Source: Candidatus Kapaibacterium sp.
GTDB taxonomy: Bacteria; Bacteroidota; Ignavibacteria; Kapaibacteriales; UBA2268
Length of the DNA stretch: 64,000 nt
Reading direction: 5' to 3'
Assembly: GCA_963664875.1 (NCBI GenBank)
Contig: OY761611.1
Location: 3,648,001 to 3,712,000, forward strand
The notes beneath the pieces were generated by a model, which did not search any database, was not told where the DNA came from, and worked only from the letters and a program-made list of their open reading frames with translations. A program made the position numbers and the translations under genes. Shown here in pieces: positions 5,543 to 13,163 of the stretch (position 1 is the first letter of the stretch; every line of letters begins with the position of its first letter).

Positions 5543-7015
5543 CTACTCTACTACAAATCCTTGAGATTTTTTTTCTATTCCGTTATCTATGACTAAGTAA
5601 TAAATACCTTTCTTCATATCCATGGTGTTGATTCTTTTGAGAGCAATTGCAGTTGTCGGGTCATATTCGAAATTGTTATCAAGCTTGCTCACAAGTTCCC
5701 CGATATAATTGTAGATGCTGAAGGAAGTCTTGCCTTTCGACTCAGGGTGTAGGTAAAAGCTGACATCTGTATATGTTTGTGCAGGGTTGGGTATTGCGTT
5801 AAAAGTAACTAAAGAAGGAATGGATTCGATTACATCAGTATCTGTAGCAAATGGGTCATACGCGATTACTCCTTGATACGCAGGAGCTGCTTGATTTCCA
5901 TCCGGATATATTATAACTCCGAACCACATCAGAGAGTCAGGAGTTACTTTGAATAGATGTCCGATGTAGCTATATGGTGGATTTTTTAATTCTAAATATG
6001 TATAAGTATTCGAATCTTTCGATTTATAATATAGCGAGGATTTTTGGACGTCCATACTTTTACCGTCTGTAAATATTACAAATCTGATGTCGTAGATATC
6101 ACAACTTCCGTTAGAATGAAATCCTGCAACATTATAAGTCTCCATATTTTCTTTCTCGTTTTCTACTATTTCAGGATGCCACTCTAATTTGTCTTCTAAG
6201 CCAACCTCTAATGTATTTAGATTGAATGAATAGATATTAGTACTTATAGGAGAGCAAAAGTGTAACTTATCCCTTATCTCATAAATAGTATTTATGTTTA
6301 GGGATTGCCAAAAGTTTTGTTCTAATTTATTGATACTGTCAATTACATAGTAATTATTATGACCTTGCTTGTCGAAACTTGCAATGCTGAGTTTTTCTTT
6401 TATGGCTAAATACCAATACTTTTTGTTGTAATTATATATTCCATTAGTGTTTGATAATGGGAACCCACCACTATTTTCAGATTTGATAATATCAAATGTA
6501 AAGTTATCTGAATTGAAAAAAATGAATCCCGGAAACGAAATAGTTGTTAATACAAATTTTTTGCCGATAAAACACCAGTTACCGTTTCCCAGATTATAAA
6601 TATAGTATATTGTCAAAGAATCCAAATCTTCGAGATAATCATTTAATCTGTATATGGAATCATTCCTTACAAATAGTAAATCTTGATTGTACTTTGTGAT
6701 ATATCCTTTCTCACTGTATTCAGTATATGGATCAACAGCATCTTTAAGTCCATTGCCTCTTTCAAAAACCTGATATTTGTAGAAATGATTGTCGTCCTCC
6801 AATATTTCAATTGGAATCAATGTATCACCGTCCTTACTAATCCAATTTGAATATAAAGTGCTGACATAAATATTATATAGCGAGTCGTAATCTACATCTA
6901 TTATAGCAGGCAAGTCTTTTGTTTTGCCCATTATAAGAGGTTTGCTCCATTTTCCTGCTTCTGTCGAAGACGTATAAATAAGCAAAATAAATAAAGTATA
7001 TAAATATAATTTCAT
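5543..7015 (-). CDS. Secreted beta-rich (propeller-like) protein with T9SS type-A C-terminal sorting domain
   Basis: Signal peptide MKLYLYTLFILLIYTSSTEA. CTD motifs PNPA...IYNYIGELV...GIYYLVI. Paralogous to 60809-62239 and 63144-64000. Confidence 0.8.
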   Translation of the reverse strand: MKLYLYTLFILLIYTSSTEAGKWSKPLIMGKTKDLPAIIDVDYDSLYNIYVSTLYSNWISKDGDTLIPIEILEDDNHFYKYQVFERGNGLKDAVDPYTEYSEKGYITKYNQDLLFVRNDSIYRLNDYLEDLDSLTIYYIYNLGNGNWCFIGKKFVLTTISFPGFIFFNSDNFTFDIIKSENSGGFPLSNTNGIYNYNKKYWYLAIKEKLSIASFDKQGHNNYYVIDSINKLEQNFWQSLNINTIYEIRDKLHFCSPISTNIYSFNLNTLEVGLEDKLEWHPEIVENEKENMETYNVAGFHSNGSCDIYDIRFVIFTDGKSMDVQKSSLYYKSKDSNTYTYLELKNPPYSYIGHLFKVTPDSLMWFGVIIYPDGNQAAPAYQGVIAYDPFATDTDVIESIPSLVTFNAIPNPAQTYTDVSFYLHPESKGKTSFSIYNYIGELVSKLDNNFEYDPTTAIALKRINTMDMKKGIYYLVIDNGIEKKSQGFVVE

Positions 7016-7100
7016 ATGACCTTCTCTTTTACATTGTTTGGGTGGAAATTGTAGTAGGTACAACTAAATATTGTACCTACTTATTTTACTTTATTTTATT

Positions 7101-7844
7101 TTATTGTTCGTCACACCTAATAACACATTCGACCCTAACCGGCTGAGTAATGTCATTATTCAGATAATATCGAATAGATTCAGGGCATTGATCAAAAACA
7201 TCAAGCTTCCTGGATACTAATGATGAGAATGCTCTTAATTCATTGAATTCAGGATACCATTTCCAGCAAATCTGATATTGACTTTCACAGTAGGACTCTT
7301 GTGCGCATTTTTTTCTCCCGTAATAATCTTTGATGGTTGTCGTTCCGTCAGGATTTACAGTAGGCAAAGAATAGAGTAATACAAAATCTTTTGAATCGCA
7401 GCTTGCTAAAGAAAGAGTTACAACATTGTTCGTGGCTAAACCAGTTTGGTCACAAAATGGAATTTGATTACCTTGGTTATGGATTGCTACCATTACCAGT
7501 GTCTTGATATAATCTTCCCACAAGCTCCAATATCCAATGTCGAATATTTCCTGGACCTCTGATAAATCACATGGAGTCTCTGTTGGAACAAAGTAGATGT
7601 TTGTTACATAAAAATCATACATGCCCTGAAAATCTCCAGTGTATGCAGCATAGCAAAACTCAACATAAACATCAGCACATAGGATGTGATCTACTAAGAC
7701 AGTACCACCATAATGCCAAAACTGCCCTGCATCCGGGTCATCTGGAGGGCAGTCTCCTTGAGGTGGCTGTGCCAAACTTGTAAAAGAAATAAGTGAAAAC
7801 ATCATTGTTAGCAACAATGATACTAAGGTGTGTTTTTTTTTCAT
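7101..7844 (-). CDS. Secreted 12-cysteine protein of unknown function
   Basis: Signal peptide, AGGAG RBS, and 12 Cys in the same register as 62303-63025. Confidence 0.8.
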   Translation of the reverse strand: MKKKHTLVSLLLTMMFSLISFTSLAQPPQGDCPPDDPDAGQFWHYGGTVLVDHILCADVYVEFCYAAYTGDFQGMYDFYVTNIYFVPTETPCDLSEVQEIFDIGYWSLWEDYIKTLVMVAIHNQGNQIPFCDQTGLATNNVVTLSLASCDSKDFVLLYSLPTVNPDGTTTIKDYYGRKKCAQESYCESQYQICWKWYPEFNELRAFSSLVSRKLDVFDQCPESIRYYLNNDITQPVRVECVIRCDEQ

Positions 7845-9161: not shown

Positions 9162-10205
9162 TTATTTTTCTAATTGATAGGGGTGAATCCCTTTCAAAAA
9201 CATTTCAGCTTCATTGACATCGTCTTCGCTGCCAATTATCACAGGGGTTCTTTGGTGTATAGAGTGAGGTTTGATACTTAATATCCTTCTTTCTCCGTCA
9301 ATTGCCCGTCCTCCGGCTTGTTCGACTATCATAGCCAAAGCGTTTGCCTCGTAAACTAATCGCAATTTTCCATTGGTATATTGAGAGTCTTTATAGTATA
9401 GATAAATACCACCATAGTGGAGAGTTCTGTGAATATCAGCGACACCTGTGGCGATATACCTTAGAGAGTAAGGTCGGTCGCCATCATCGGAAATCAAATT
9501 CAGATATTCCACATAATCCTGATTCCATTTGTGCCAGCGATTGAAATAGCCGACATTGGTAGAGTAAATATTGCCTTTTTGTGGTATTTTCAAATTTTTC
9601 TTCGTAAGCAAAAACTCGCCAAGAGTAGGGTCGTATGTAAATACATTAACACCATGTCCGGTTGTATAGACAAGGTTGGTCGATGAGCCATAAAGCACAT
9701 AGCCGGCAGCAACCTGCTTATATCCGGGTTGAAGCAAATCTTCCACTGTGCCCGGAGTTTCAGCTTTGAAGTCTAACCTTTTATAAACAGAAAAAATAGT
9801 ACCGATGGTAACATTAGCATCAATATTGTTGGAACCGTCTAATGGGTCAAAAGCAACTACATATTTGCCGTATCTGCCGTTGTCCGGTATGATTATATCA
9901 TCATTTTCTTCTGATGCCATGACACATACGTTCCCACCTTTGATTAGTGCACCTTTTATCACATCATTAGAATATGTGTCGAGCTTTCTGACCTGCTCGC
10001 CGTGAACATTAGTTTTTCTCGCCAATCCGAGTATATCATTGAGTCCGGCTCTTCTGACGTCTCTGGAGATAATACGGATTGCAAACGTAATATCATGTAA
10101 TAATGCTGAAAAATCACCTGTTGCTTCAGGGTGTAAATTTTCTTCCTGAGAAATATGGTGATCGATGGTTACTAATCTGTCAGTAGTAGAAAAAGGCATA
10201 ATCAT
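9162..10205 (-). CDS. fbp: Fructose-1,6-bisphosphatase class 1
   Basis: ASEE, FDPLDGS, GKLRLVYEANA and EQAGG motifs. Confidence 0.95.
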   Translation of the reverse strand: MIMPFSTTDRLVTIDHHISQEENLHPEATGDFSALLHDITFAIRIISRDVRRAGLNDILGLARKTNVHGEQVRKLDTYSNDVIKGALIKGGNVCVMASEENDDIIIPDNGRYGKYVVAFDPLDGSNNIDANVTIGTIFSVYKRLDFKAETPGTVEDLLQPGYKQVAAGYVLYGSSTNLVYTTGHGVNVFTYDPTLGEFLLTKKNLKIPQKGNIYSTNVGYFNRWHKWNQDYVEYLNLISDDGDRPYSLRYIATGVADIHRTLHYGGIYLYYKDSQYTNGKLRLVYEANALAMIVEQAGGRAIDGERRILSIKPHSIHQRTPVIIGSEDDVNEAEMFLKGIHPYQLEK

Positions 10206-10308: not shown

Positions 10309-10587
10309 CTATCCTTTTGCGAAGCTTTTGAACTGTTTCATTTTCAATCTGATAAATTGAACAGAGCAAGATAGCTCTTTAGCCAATTCTTTGCTGTCTC
10401 GTTTTCTATTTTCTTCAAGATATTTTCTAATAAAAGAATCCAATCGGGTTATCTTAGGTATATAAAATTGAGCTCCCGAGTTTGTCTCCATCAATTTTCT
10501 TACATTTTCTATTCCGATAATCGCTGCCAAATCTTGTAAATCATCAGTCAGGTCATCGAACTCGATTTTTGTGTAGATGTTTGCCAT
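10309..10587 (-). CDS. Mor/C-family (phage Mu middle-operon-regulator-like) transcription activator
   Basis: L..DLQDLAAIIGIENVRKLME..SGAQFYIPK followed by a C-terminal HTH (KELAKELSCSVQFI). GGGAG RBS. Confidence 0.75.
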   Translation of the reverse strand: MANIYTKIEFDDLTDDLQDLAAIIGIENVRKLMETNSGAQFYIPKITRLDSFIRKYLEENRKRDSKELAKELSCSVQFIRLKMKQFKSFAKG

Positions 10588-10606
10588 TTTGATTTCTCCC
10601 TATATG

Positions 10607-10730
10607 AGTAATATATACTTGCATAAGTAAATTATATATATTATTTTGAATTAGTAACATTATTTGTCAAAATCAAAAAGATATTTACTAAAAAGAGTAA
10701 TATTTACCTACTATATAAGTAAATATTACT
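10607..10730. promoter_or_regulatory. Three near-palindromic operators (consensus AGTAATATTTACT) in the divergent intergenic region
   Basis: agtaatatatact 10607-10619, agtaatatttacc 10696-10708, agtaaatattact 10718-10730, plus half-sites. Confidence 0.6.
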
Positions 10731-10748
10731 TGTTGTGCAAGAAAAAAA

Positions 10749-11138
10749 ATGGATGCTCTAAAAAAAAATATCGGAAGACGGCTAAAAGAAATCAGATTGT
10801 TTGTATTCGACGGCATGACTATCAATGTTTTTGCCGAAATGCTCAGCGAGAAGCCTGCAAATATATCTAATTATGAGCAAGGCAAAGCAAATATACCGAA
10901 TAGAGTGCTTGTGGAGTTATATCACAAAGGCATAAATCCCATATACATCCTGACAGGTGAGGGGGCAAAAAAAAGAGAGAATTTTACAGAAGCTAATAGC
11001 GGCGAAGCAACTTTAAACCGCTCAAAACTCGAATACCTTATTGAAAAAGCCGATGAAATGACTGCAGCCGCCGGGGACATTAAGAAGTATGTTTTAGAAC
11101 AACAATCGAAATCTGATGCCGATACAAACAACAAATGA
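10749..11138 (+). CDS. XRE/CI-like HTH repressor with C-terminal TAAAG motif
   Basis: IGRRLKEIR...FAEML....ISNYEQGK..IP and INPIYILTGEG are typical of CI N-terminal domains. Confidence 0.85.
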   Translation: MDALKKNIGRRLKEIRLFVFDGMTINVFAEMLSEKPANISNYEQGKANIPNRVLVELYHKGINPIYILTGEGAKKRENFTEANSGEATLNRSKLEYLIEKADEMTAAAGDIKKYVLEQQSKSDADTNNK

Positions 11139-11718
11139 TTTGAGCTCTTTAAGCGATTACAGTTTATATGGATTAGTCAAAAAATATGTAACGCATGAAC
11201 TGCTTGGCTTTACTCACTCTGCTGCGAAGTTAGACAGATGCATCGCTGAATGCAAAAAGAGAAGAAAGGGTATCTTTATGCGTGCAAGCGAAGATGCCTA
11301 CCTCGAATTTCTTGCAAAATCAGATAAGCAAAGCGAAATATTTAAGACTATCTCTTTTGCTTATGCCTCAAAAGAAGACATTCTAAATATTGCTCCCGAA
11401 ATATCCAATCTACTGCCAGATGAAGCGGATTTTTCGAAATATGATATATATAAAGTATCCGGTGATTCAATGATAAACGCCGGAATTGCCGACGGAGAGC
11501 ACATATTAGCTGAAAGAATCAACGAAGTCAAAGACGGCGACATTGTTGTAGTCAGATACATGGAAAGGATATTTATTAAAAGATACAAACTAATAGAAGG
11601 CACTATTACTCTTCATTCGGAAAATCCTAAATTCCCTCCATTCAAAGTATATAACACAGAAAATTTACAAATACTCGGCAAAGTAAAATTCAAAATCAGC
11701 GTTGTGAGTGCAGAATAG
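11116..11718 (+). CDS. Stand-alone S24 (LexA/UmuD-type) serine peptidase with an uncharacterised helical N-terminal domain
   Basis: VSGDSMINAGIADG (Ser118), IKR (Lys155) and LHSENPKF motifs. No HTH and no upstream Ala-Gly. Confidence 0.85.
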   Translation: MPIQTTNDLSSLSDYSLYGLVKKYVTHELLGFTHSAAKLDRCIAECKKRRKGIFMRASEDAYLEFLAKSDKQSEIFKTISFAYASKEDILNIAPEISNLLPDEADFSKYDIYKVSGDSMINAGIADGEHILAERINEVKDGDIVVVRYMERIFIKRYKLIEGTITLHSENPKFPPFKVYNTENLQILGKVKFKISVVSAE

Positions 11719-11837
11719 TTGTTTTGATACATTCCCCTTTACTACAATTCTATCTTTTCAAATCCGTAAACGAACTCTCGAAGATATTTGTTATTTTTGT
11801 AATCTTGATATTTTTTCCTAAGTACTTGGATTATATA

Positions 11838-13163
11838 ATGCAAAAAAGAAAAGTATATATAGAAACTTATGGCTGTCAGATGAATTTCAGTGATTCTGAA
11901 ATTGTTGCAGGGATTTTGAATGCAACCGAAAAATATACTATGATAGCCGAACCTGACTCTGCTGACATTATTTTCCTTAATACCTGTTCTGTCAGAGATA
12001 ACGCTGAGCAAACTATTTTCAAAAGGCTAGAGCATCTAAAACATTACAAAAAGAAAAAAGGCAAGCTCGTGGTGGGTATTTTGGGTTGCATGGCTGAAAG
12101 ACTTCGGGATAAACTAATTGGTCACAACAACCTTGTCTCCATAGTTGTCGGTCCTGATGAATATAGGAAAGTGCCGGCTCTGTTAGATCAGGCTTATCAG
12201 GGAGAAGCCGGGATAGCTGTCAAATTAAGCAGAGTAGAAACTTACGAAGACATTTTACCGCTCAGAGTTGAGGGTATCTCAGCCTGGATTTCTATCATGA
12301 GGGGCTGTGATAATTTTTGCTCTTATTGCGTTGTGCCTTATACTCGAGGCAGAGAGCGTTCGCGACCTGCAAGTTCTTTACTGGCAGAAATAAAAGACCT
12401 CGCCAATGGCGGAATTAAAGAAATTACTCTTTTAGGACAAAATGTAAATAGCTATAACGATAAGGAAGGCAATCTTGATTTTCCGGATTTGCTTGCTGCT
12501 ATAGCTGAAGCAGTGCCGTCTGTAAGAATAAGATATACAACGTCGCACCCTAAGGATATGAGCGACAAGCTAATTGAAGTGATGGCAGCTCATAAAAATA
12601 TATGTAATTATATACATTTGCCTGTGCAATCAGGTTCTGATAAAGTGCTTAAGGAAATGCTTAGAGAATACACAGTTGAGCACTATTTAGACCGCATCAG
12701 AAAATGCCGCGAACTAATACCCAATGTATCGTTTTCAACTGACATAATTGCCGGTTTTCCCGGAGAAACAGTGGAAGAACATGAAATGACTCTTGAGCTT
12801 ATGCGAAATGTTCGTTACGACGGGGCTTATATGTTCAAATACTCTCCAAGAGAAAATACAAAAGCGTATAAAATGGAAGATGATGTGCCGGAAGATGAAA
12901 AAATCAGAAGGTTGAACGAAATAATTGAGCTTCAGCATGAGATTGCCCGTGAATTGAATAATGAAGAGATCGGACGCATTCATGAGGTGCTTGTAGAGGG
13001 GCCAAGTAAAAAAAATGAAGATGAATGGATGGGGAGAAGCGACACAAACAAAGTAGTTATTTTCCCGAATGCGGACAGGAAGTATAGAATTGGTGATATT
13101 GTTAATGTAAAGATTACTGATTCTACTTCTGCTACTCTAAGAGGAGAAAGACTTGAGCCTTAG
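11838..13163 (+). CDS. miaB: tRNA-2-methylthio-N6-dimethylallyladenosine synthase
   Basis: TYGCQMN, NTCSVR, radical-SAM CDNFCSYC and a C-terminal TRAM domain. ATG at 11838. Confidence 0.95.
   Translation: MQKRKVYIETYGCQMNFSDSEIVAGILNATEKYTMIAEPDSADIIFLNTCSVRDNAEQTIFKRLEHLKHYKKKKGKLVVGILGCMAERLRDKLIGHNNLVSIVVGPDEYRKVPALLDQAYQGEAGIAVKLSRVETYEDILPLRVEGISAWISIMRGCDNFCSYCVVPYTRGRERSRPASSLLAEIKDLANGGIKEITLLGQNVNSYNDKEGNLDFPDLLAAIAEAVPSVRIRYTTSHPKDMSDKLIEVMAAHKNICNYIHLPVQSGSDKVLKEMLREYTVEHYLDRIRKCRELIPNVSFSTDIIAGFPGETVEEHEMTLELMRNVRYDGAYMFKYSPRENTKAYKMEDDVPEDEKIRRLNEIIELQHEIARELNNEEIGRIHEVLVEGPSKKNEDEWMGRSDTNKVVIFPNADRKYRIGDIVNVKITDSTSATLRGERLEP

Follow-up and report, generated by a model that had tools for sequence, protein, structure and literature searches.

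A locus of Candidatus Kapaibacterium with separate repressor and S24 peptidase genes: a candidate two-polypeptide LexA/CI-type switch

The window analyzed here is a 64,000-nucleotide (nt) stretch of DNA from Candidatus Kapaibacterium sp. (assembly GCA_963664875.1, contig OY761611.1, positions 3,648,001 to 3,712,000), and the locus of interest occupies positions 10309-11718 of it. Three genes lie there: a gene for an XRE-type helix-turn-helix (HTH) repressor, an overlapping gene for an S24-type Ser/Lys peptidase on the same strand, and a divergent gene for a small Mor-like activator. The C-terminal tail of the repressor carries a motif resembling the cleavage sites of self-cleaving S24 repressors, and the peptidase has no such site of its own. 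The features are as follows, with protein lengths in amino acids (aa).

10309-10587, minus strand: Mor-like small activator gene, 92 aa, divergent from the HTH gene; Pfam, PHROG and profile matches
10588-10748, no strand: control region between the divergent genes, 161 bp and AT-rich, with palindromic operator-like sites
10749-11138, plus strand: XRE-type HTH repressor gene, 129 aa; HTH domain at residues 1-75, disordered linker at 76-90, C-terminal tail at 91-129
11064-11081, plus strand: S24-type cleavage-site-like motif, codons of A106-A107-A108-G109-D110-I111, defined by column counts in 110 homologues
11070-11072 and 11073-11075, plus strand: codons of the predicted scissile bond A108/G109, within the HTH gene
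11116-11718, plus strand: S24 Ser/Lys peptidase gene, 200 aa (PF00717, E=1e-19)
11155-11322, plus strand: three-helix N-terminal domain (N-domain) of the S24 protein, residues 14-69, from an AlphaFold2 model
11467-11469 and 11578-11580, plus strand: codons of Ser118 and Lys155 of the S24 protein, whose S24 core starts at about residue 105

An initial annotation, made from the letters alone, had described a 129-aa XRE-HTH protein with an Ala108-Gly109 pair near its end. The translation agrees, with 21 residues after A108 and the context TAAAGDIKKYVLEQ. By itself the protein scores below the Pfam cut-offs for HTH_19 (20.1 bits, cut-off 30.2) and HTH_3 (18.2 bits, cut-off 23). A profile of its family matches generic XRE-type chains in the PDB (PezA, Orf20) at E-values of about 0.005-0.01, and no match in that search covers the tail. 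The AlphaFold2 model, built from 110 sequences, has five helices within residues 2-69 with a predicted local distance difference test (pLDDT) score above 93. The linker that follows is disordered, with a pLDDT of 45 over residues 81-90 and values below 50 at residues 83-89. The PHROGs labels are transcriptional regulator/repressor for the HTH protein, repressor/UmuD-like for the S24 protein and late transcriptional activator (E=2e-6) for the Mor-like protein.

The S24 protein matches Pfam Peptidase_S24 (PF00717) at 70.7 bits (cut-off 23.3), covering model positions 37-115 of 116. Its scores against LexA (TIGR00498, 60.8 bits, model positions 111-195 only) and UmuD (NF007621, 59.5 bits) fall under the respective cut-offs of 110.95 and 110, and among solved sequences UmuD' is the nearest (E=1.8e-21). 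The AlphaFold2 model, from a 12-sequence alignment, has a pLDDT of 89.8 and a predicted template modelling (pTM) score of 0.84. Helices at residues 14-29, 36-49 and 53-69, a strand at 75-80 and two short helices precede the S24 barrel. The initial annotation had described an N-terminal domain of about 100 aa made of helices; its helical nature holds in the model, and its length does not, as the helices span only about 70 aa. No HTH family in Pfam or NCBIfam matches residues 1-100, and an ESM Atlas search with residues 1-104 gave a best score of 0.81, below the 0.9 threshold. The model's fold matches are the C-domains of LexA, UmuD' and CI (Foldseek E=2e-9; VIA-align Z 12-13), and they include structures titled '1jhf LexA G85D' and '8b0v LexA G91D'. 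Where the matched LexA chains begin at residues 81-89, the VIA and Foldseek alignments start at residues 59-66 of the S24 model. As only the end residues of these alignments are known, we suggest tentatively that the fold includes the strand that follows the LexA cleavage loop and lacks the cleavable loop.

Ser118 and Lys155 are invariant in the 12 sequences of the S24 alignment. A larger set comprises 119 N-domain-bearing family representatives; all of them have Gly116, Ser118 and Met119, and 118 have Lys155. In self-cleaving LexA, CI and UmuD, an Ala-Gly or Cys-Gly precedes the Ser of the same chain by about 33-36 residues, and the S24 protein lacks such a site. Neither dipeptide is present ahead of Ser118 in the window protein; the absence of Ala-Gly had already been read from the letters. 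Across the 119 representatives, the columns where a LexA-type self-site would be expected read M/L and then S/T/N. An Ala-Gly or Cys-Gly does occur 8-50 residues upstream of G-x-S-M in 20 of these proteins, and it is not conserved. A separate class of S24-only (UmuD-like) genes of about 140-160 aa recurs as tandem pairs in many genomes of this bacterial family, e.g., L012 858-1292 with 1372-1794 and G000:C1:3577281-3577595 with 3577719-3578129.

The motif in the repressor tail stands out from its surroundings. In an alignment of 110 HTH-family proteins (mean column identity 34%), the C-terminal half is unconserved apart from six columns, and the linker ahead of them is likewise unconserved. 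These columns read [AV]-A-A-G-[DK]-[ILMV], and their conservation is far above chance. The residue counts, each out of 110 proteins, are given by alignment position.

Position 106: A 66, V 40
Position 107: A 100, V 10
Position 108: A 110
Position 109: G 99, D 9, A 2
Position 110: D 82, K 23, N 4
Position 111: I/M/L/V 110

The AAG context picked out by the initial annotation is therefore a family feature, with Ala108 kept in every homologue and the Gly in all but 11. Between 3 and 25 residues (median 15) lie beyond position 109, and the short-tailed members read K-V-A-A-G-K-I followed by 3-5 residues. We compared the motif with 116 LexA-type proteins, and the cleavage site could be extracted from 113 of them. 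These canonical sites read G-[RK]-V-[TAV]-A/G-[EQK]-P-I-L and are mostly found 33-36 residues ahead of the Ser. The tail motif agrees with them at P3-P1', and the short-tailed K-V-A-A-G-K-I agrees from P4 to P2'. In two loci (L052, at 5941-7359, and L053) the HTH protein extends past the AAG into R-R-R-G-R-P-R-rich, AT-hook-like repeats. Neither of the two has an adjoining S24 gene, and in both genomes a full-length S24 family member is located elsewhere.

The HTH and S24 genes share 23 nt in different reading frames, and such an overlap is also what an assembly frameshift or a pseudogene of a single-chain HTH-S24 repressor might look like. The initial annotation had argued against this from a stop at 11095-11097. 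A TAG is found there in the reading frame of the S24 gene, so a fusion of both open reading frames (ORFs) would be possible only by a shift within 11098-11138. The distribution of the genes points the same way. A search of 41 related genomes recovered full-length homologues of the 200-aa protein, at 55-63% identity within the genus and also from other genera of the family. ORF maps of close relatives include Mor-like, HTH and S24 genes each time, with the HTH and S24 genes overlapping or abutting. We then compared 52 species-level loci, taken from contigs of one genome per species (Kapaibacterium, Ignavibacteria, Chlorobiota/Chloroherpeton and unclassified metagenome-assembled genomes [MAGs]) with genes called by local hidden Markov models. 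Two MAGs, L060 and L061, are labelled Chloroherpeton thalassium. Repressor and protease are separate genes in 52/52 loci. Their junctions differ: the genes overlap, abut, are separated by gaps of as much as 57 nt or by a 1.8-kb insertion, or are unlinked. We did not find a fused form at the protein level either. The S24 profile detected 117 proteins at E<=1e-30 among 1.84 billion representatives; the best 150 representatives are nearly all 185-236 aa long and match from about residue 1, a few of 250-285 aa hold two S24 stretches, and no HTH precedes the S24 domain in any of these 150. The HTH profile matched 171 protein clusters, 113-178 aa long among the 120 matches listed. Those named, again among the matches listed, are from Bacteroidota, Ignavibacteria, Kapabacteria and 'FCB group' MAGs. 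Among 7,995 longer candidates that were scored in search of fused forms, none matched the HTH profile, a result that the search tool rates as weak evidence. A frameshift artefact was rejected on the basis of the separate genes in all 52 loci and the lack of any fused relative among the proteins searched, and we consider its chance negligible.

The three-gene arrangement is also conserved, which was one of the checks proposed with the initial annotation. A Mor-like gene is present in 51/52 loci, the exception being truncated by a contig end, and an HTH gene in 51/52, the exception being a tblastn match without an ORF call. The S24 gene lies directly downstream of, or overlaps, the HTH gene in 45/52 loci, in one case behind the inserted 1.8-kb gene. 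That insertion (L023 4188-5789) is a gene for a 533-aa secreted repeat protein that splits the operon between the HTH and S24 genes and leaves both intact. All seven genomes without an adjoining S24 gene carry a full-length member with N-domain and S24 core elsewhere. Five of these copies (E 1e-49 to 1e-57) have as neighbors a znuB-like permease gene and one encoding a protein of about 240 aa with an N-terminal hydrophobic segment, and the other two have E-values of about 1e-48. Three lineages encode a minimal S24 core of 88-139 aa without the N-domain, adjoining an HTH gene with a short AAG tail, and no full-length S24 form was detected elsewhere in their genomes. Since such cores stand beside AAG tails, tail and core are the common denominator of the system.

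At the genome level, within the set of 41 relatives, 23 of 24 genomes of the same family match all three profiles (HTH, Mor-like and S24). The matches are strong (HTH E<=1e-27, Mor-like E<=1e-26) except in G007 (HTH 4e-17, Mor-like 8e-14) and G019 (Mor-like 3e-15), and the N-domain-bearing S24 form is found in 18 genomes, including G000. One genome that is 100% complete (G006) has no HTH, Mor-like or S24 match. The 16 genomes from other families of the order have neither Mor-like nor N-domain-S24 matches, only generic XRE or S24-core ones. The compared genomes are kin, and these co-occurrence counts thus amount to a descriptive pattern, with no claim to statistical significance.

The constant pairing of an intact S24 protein that lacks its own site with a repressor whose tail looks like an S24 site is most simply accounted for by cleavage in trans at Ala108/Gly109. 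We propose that the locus encodes a chromosomal two-polypeptide LexA/CI-type switch, in which the S24 protease would cleave the repressor in trans and so derepress the Mor-like activator. In our view, this proposal has an even chance of being correct. The locus shares with LexA and lambda CI-type regulators, including the non-canonical XRE-S24 LexA of Bacteroidetes (PMC8565304), the S24 fold, the Ser/Lys dyad, an Ala-Gly preceded by V/A-A and an HTH repressor with palindromic operators, and the expected logic, relief of repression by cleavage, would be the same. It differs in that those regulators are one chain, whereas here the polypeptide with motif and HTH is distinct from the one that holds the catalytic domain. 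A three-helix N-domain and the lack of a site mark the latter, and the host has a separate LexA-like gene. UmuD/UmuD' is alike in the sequence of its catalytic domain and in acting in trans within a dimer (PMC9926225), and that intermolecular cleavage is a precedent for trans action of the S24 fold. UmuD cleaves a copy of itself; the S24 protein here would cut a different protein, and its gene adjoins miaB and the HTH gene.

The divergent Mor-like gene would be the output of the switch. The initial annotation had called it a Mor-family activator, and this call survives at the family level. The window protein alone scores weakly against Pfam Mor (PF08765; 22.4 bits, cut-off 24.9). In its family, 18 of 23 members match PF08765 at E<=0.01 (best 1e-8), and the family profile matches phage Mu Mor (1rr7, E=7e-4) around a common Y-I-P motif (YIPK vs YIPR). 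The Mor assignment of the 92-aa protein thus appears remote but consistent. Two side observations concern this gene. In L036, L038, L040 and L041 the Mor-like gene is positioned 17 nt ahead of the HTH gene (it overlaps the called ORF in L038), giving a Mor-HTH-S24 operon. In 31/50 loci a small protein gene (about 70-130 aa), absent from the genus of the window, lies just upstream of the Mor-like gene; its product has a D-[IL]-x-[FY]-[IL]-[IL]-[DE]-D-Y segment and a very acidic tail. Examples on the Mor-like strand are L033 5542-5868, L042 5525-5836 and L010 597-881.

The control region contains an inverted repeat, AGTAATATTTACC / AGTAAATATTACT, at 10696-10730. Within it are AGTAA-N3-TTACT palindromes at 10696-10708 and 10718-10730, and a copy with one mismatch (10607-10619) adjoins the start of the Mor-like gene. 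In all five same-genus intergenic regions, a palindrome of this type is found some 20 nt away from where the Mor-like gene starts, and a second one precedes the HTH gene. The XRE-type repressor would bind these palindromes and hold down both its own promoter and that of the Mor-like gene. Only nine strict AGTAA-N3-TTACT sites are found in the 3.83-Mb genome, two of them in the control region. The remaining seven are in coding sequence except for one, which lies upstream of a ribosomal protein gene, and none resembles a plausible target promoter. The repressor therefore seems to act locally on its own divergent region, and a wider regulon would pass through the Mor-like protein. S24-controlled repressors above a small dedicated activator are known from PrtR/PrtN-type circuits. 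PrtR/PrtN and phage Mu Mor are alike in this respect, with the qualification that the activator here is a remote Mor homologue, and they differ in that the Mor-like gene here is chromosomal, with no middle or late genes of a phage in its neighborhood.

Phages typically employ regulators of the Mor family and of the CI-type S24 class, as the PHROG matches reflect, and the unit could in principle be a regulatory cassette from a Mu-like or temperate phage, either decaying or controlling remnant phage genes. The genes on either side of the locus are as follows.

9162-10205, minus strand: fbp, with FBPase domains by domain matches
11832-13163, plus strand: MiaB-type radical-SAM/TRAM gene, with UPF0004, Radical_SAM and TRAM matches

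These domain matches uphold the fbp and miaB flanks of the initial annotation, which had seen neither an integrase nor virion genes there, and the flanks indeed contain none. Of 632 non-overlapping ORFs around the 52 loci, the recurrent ones beyond the three genes are fbp, a TPR-like protein, a protein of about 100 aa after the S24 gene and lineage-specific housekeeping genes, and no phage gene cluster recurs. The conserved protein just after the S24 gene (about 93-113 aa) is found in 8/52 loci, e.g., L007 2354-2635, L009 1187-1474 and L024 2470-2772, and is absent in the window. A tblastn of 50,697 phage records gave no HTH or Mor-like homologue, and the protease matches were confined to the S24 core, from residue 87 onward. 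When 2.9 million viral contigs were scanned by pattern, five weak candidates emerged, none with the tail motif, an S24 gene or a Mor-like gene. The chromosomal, non-phage setting read from the window accordingly extends to the flanks, phage records and viral contigs searched. Housekeeping flanks that differ by lineage, and three intact genes with one strong match per family in nearly every genome of the bacterial family, likewise argue against a phage origin. A prophage remnant was rejected for these reasons, and we regard the phage explanation as very improbable. PADLOC did not detect a defense system, the S24 protein included; its only match was a weak RmrA-type HTH match.

Several observations weigh against cleavage in trans. 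The tail (residues 91-127) is modelled as a single continuous helix, with a pLDDT of 70-83 and the motif mid-helix, a prediction that differs from the extended conformation required by an S24 active site. The model thus speaks against a pre-formed extended substrate; being of an unbound monomer, it is silent on the state of the tail at the protease. The canonical P3' Pro, present in 110 of the 113 LexA-type sites, is missing from the tails. The P1' Gly is missing in 11/110 tails (nine Asp and two Ala), and a Gly-to-Asp change at P1' renders Escherichia coli LexA non-cleavable, so those lineages would need another mode of control. In locus L006 the tail is without the P1' Gly, yet the partner S24 protein retains an intact Ser/Lys pair. 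In an hhalign comparison with XRE-S24 repressors, the HTH family aligned by the HTH only (probability 50%), with the tail unaligned to the cleavage-site region. The S24 family likewise aligned by the S24 core only (99.7%), and its residues 60-105 could not be linked to that region. Finally, in 4/50 loci (L036, L038, L040 and L041; Mor-like gene at 5630-5965, plus strand) the Mor-like gene is on the HTH strand, directly upstream of the HTH gene, and not divergent.

Some of these observations suit other explanations of the tail. It may be a pseudo-substrate or tether that docks on the S24 protein without being cut, with the S24 protein supplying dimerization and induction brought about by displacement or degradation of that partner. 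A linear motif kept even with 3-5 trailing residues fits such docking, as do the Asp or Ala for Gly in 11/110 tails beside an intact partner core in L006. S24 C-domains are, moreover, the dimerization modules of LexA, according to a review. Against docking alone, the retention of Ser118 (119/119) and Lys155 (118/119) is difficult to explain without catalysis, and no alternative candidate substrate is linked to the S24 gene. We consider docking without cleavage unlikely. The tail may otherwise be a dimerization or partner-binding helix whose AAAG patch packs on another helix, for instance in the S24 N-domain. Its likeness to a cleavage site would in that case be fortuitous, with the S24 protein processing another target, or itself at a non-canonical site. 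The helix modelled over 91-127 with moderate confidence, the Gly exchanged for Ala or Asp in 11/110 and the failure of profile comparison to link the tail to a cleavage-site region are all compatible with this. The short tails (K-V-A-A-G-K-I plus 3-5 residues), however, are too short for such a helix and resemble a strand. The motif also persists where the S24 protein lacks the N-domain, and its match to canonical P3-P1' sites is close. A purely helical role is in our view quite improbable. A further pattern was noted when tails and S24 partners were compared in 45 pairs. The strongest signal lies 3-5 residues beyond Lys155. Where the tail has Asp after the Gly, 15 of 20 S24 partners carry a Lys three residues beyond the catalytic one; where it has Lys/Arg there, 8 of 16 partners carry a Glu/Asp two residues further on. 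Charge matching between tail and protease could underlie this; as the tail classes are clades and the comparison is confounded by phylogeny, it is a lead only.

Taking cleavage in trans as the preferred reading, the steps of the switch may be pictured as follows. The S24 protein, co-transcribed with the repressor and catalytically intact by sequence, would have lost its own site and gained a three-helix N-domain. The repressor tail would mimic the cleavage-site region of self-cleaving S24 repressors. On a signal sensed via the N-domain or via RecA filaments, the S24 active site would take the tail and cut Ala108-Gly109 in trans. The N-domain is the obvious candidate for the sensing or gating element, although three lineages lack it. 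The Mor-like activator would then be produced and switch on its regulon. How cleavage might inactivate the repressor is a separate question. The initial annotation had the protease clip a C-terminal helix from the repressor, which does not hold in general, as several lineages have only 3-5 residues after the Gly. With so few residues beyond the Gly in many lineages, inactivation is most likely by what cleavage leaves behind. Cleavage may free the repressor from its tether to the protease, which is probably dimeric. Alternatively, and more speculatively, the new C-terminus may route the repressor to ClpXP. Since Ala107 is present in 100/110 tails and Ala108 in all of them, the cleaved C-terminus would usually end in Ala-Ala, similar to the host tmRNA tag (ANENYALAA), which ends Leu-Ala-Ala. 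Neher et al. reportedly found in 2003 that the ClpX recognition signal of the N-terminal LexA fragment is its new C-terminus. The host genome encodes RecA (527 bits) and ClpX (593 bits). LexA cleavage is reported to expose residues that target LexA to ClpXP and Lon (PMC3159453).

The host also has a separate, full-length LexA-like gene outside the window (G000:C1:2890640-2891239; L078 1489-2175, minus strand). Its 228-aa product scores 108.1 bits against TIGR00498 (cut-off 110.95) and keeps the Ser motif, with an Arg at the position of the catalytic Lys (YIIREY). It may be a non-cleaving relative of LexA. A fuller version of our proposal, possible though doubtful, is that the S24 protein is an obligate trans peptidase with an XRE substrate, that the cut unmasks an ssrA-like degron by the loss of as few as four residues, and that ClpXP then destroys the repressor and frees the Mor-type activator. 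As a further and similarly doubtful part of that version, the unit would be a stress switch that runs parallel to the host LexA-like protein across Kapabacteria, Ignavibacteria and Chloroherpeton, and the N-domain would be a new signal input for S24 proteins.

S24 regulators are the textbook examples of self-cleavage, and, to our knowledge, all known two-gene repressor/protease switches employ metallopeptidases. ImmR/ImmA and CapH/CapP pair an XRE repressor with a COG2856 metallopeptidase. The logic of ImmR/ImmA, DdrO/IrrE and CapH/CapP is that of the present locus, a small XRE repressor inactivated by a dedicated protease from a neighboring gene, and DdrO is cut near its C-terminus, as predicted for the HTH tail here. 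They differ in using a COG2856/M78-type zinc metallopeptidase, whereas the present locus combines an S24 serine peptidase with a LexA-like substrate motif. The comparative evidence, from sequence, is strong, and the HTH/S24 pair would carry out the logic of ImmR/ImmA and DdrO/IrrE with LexA/UmuD parts. The S24 regulators found in the literature searched are single chains: the non-canonical LexA of Bacteroidetes (PMC8565304), PrlP (PMC12273997), IrvR (PMC7101444) and a Francisella phage repressor; DdrO/IrrE is described among the XRE/metalloprotease pairs. In full-text literature, with subscription journals mostly outside coverage, we did not find an XRE repressor described as cleaved by a separately encoded S24 peptidase, nor any such case for Kapabacteria.

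If the proposed switch is real, the cleavage-site region of S24 repressors can serve as a portable linear motif, and the pair would be a natural system for studying S24 substrate recognition free of intramolecular constraint, and it would give synthetic biology a compact pair of protease and tag. Should the N-domain respond to something other than RecA filaments, the known range of inputs to the S24 protease family would be wider. For the organisms themselves, the locus would point to a second circuit for damage or stress, independent of LexA, in a part of the Bacteroidota/Chlorobi radiation that has received little study.

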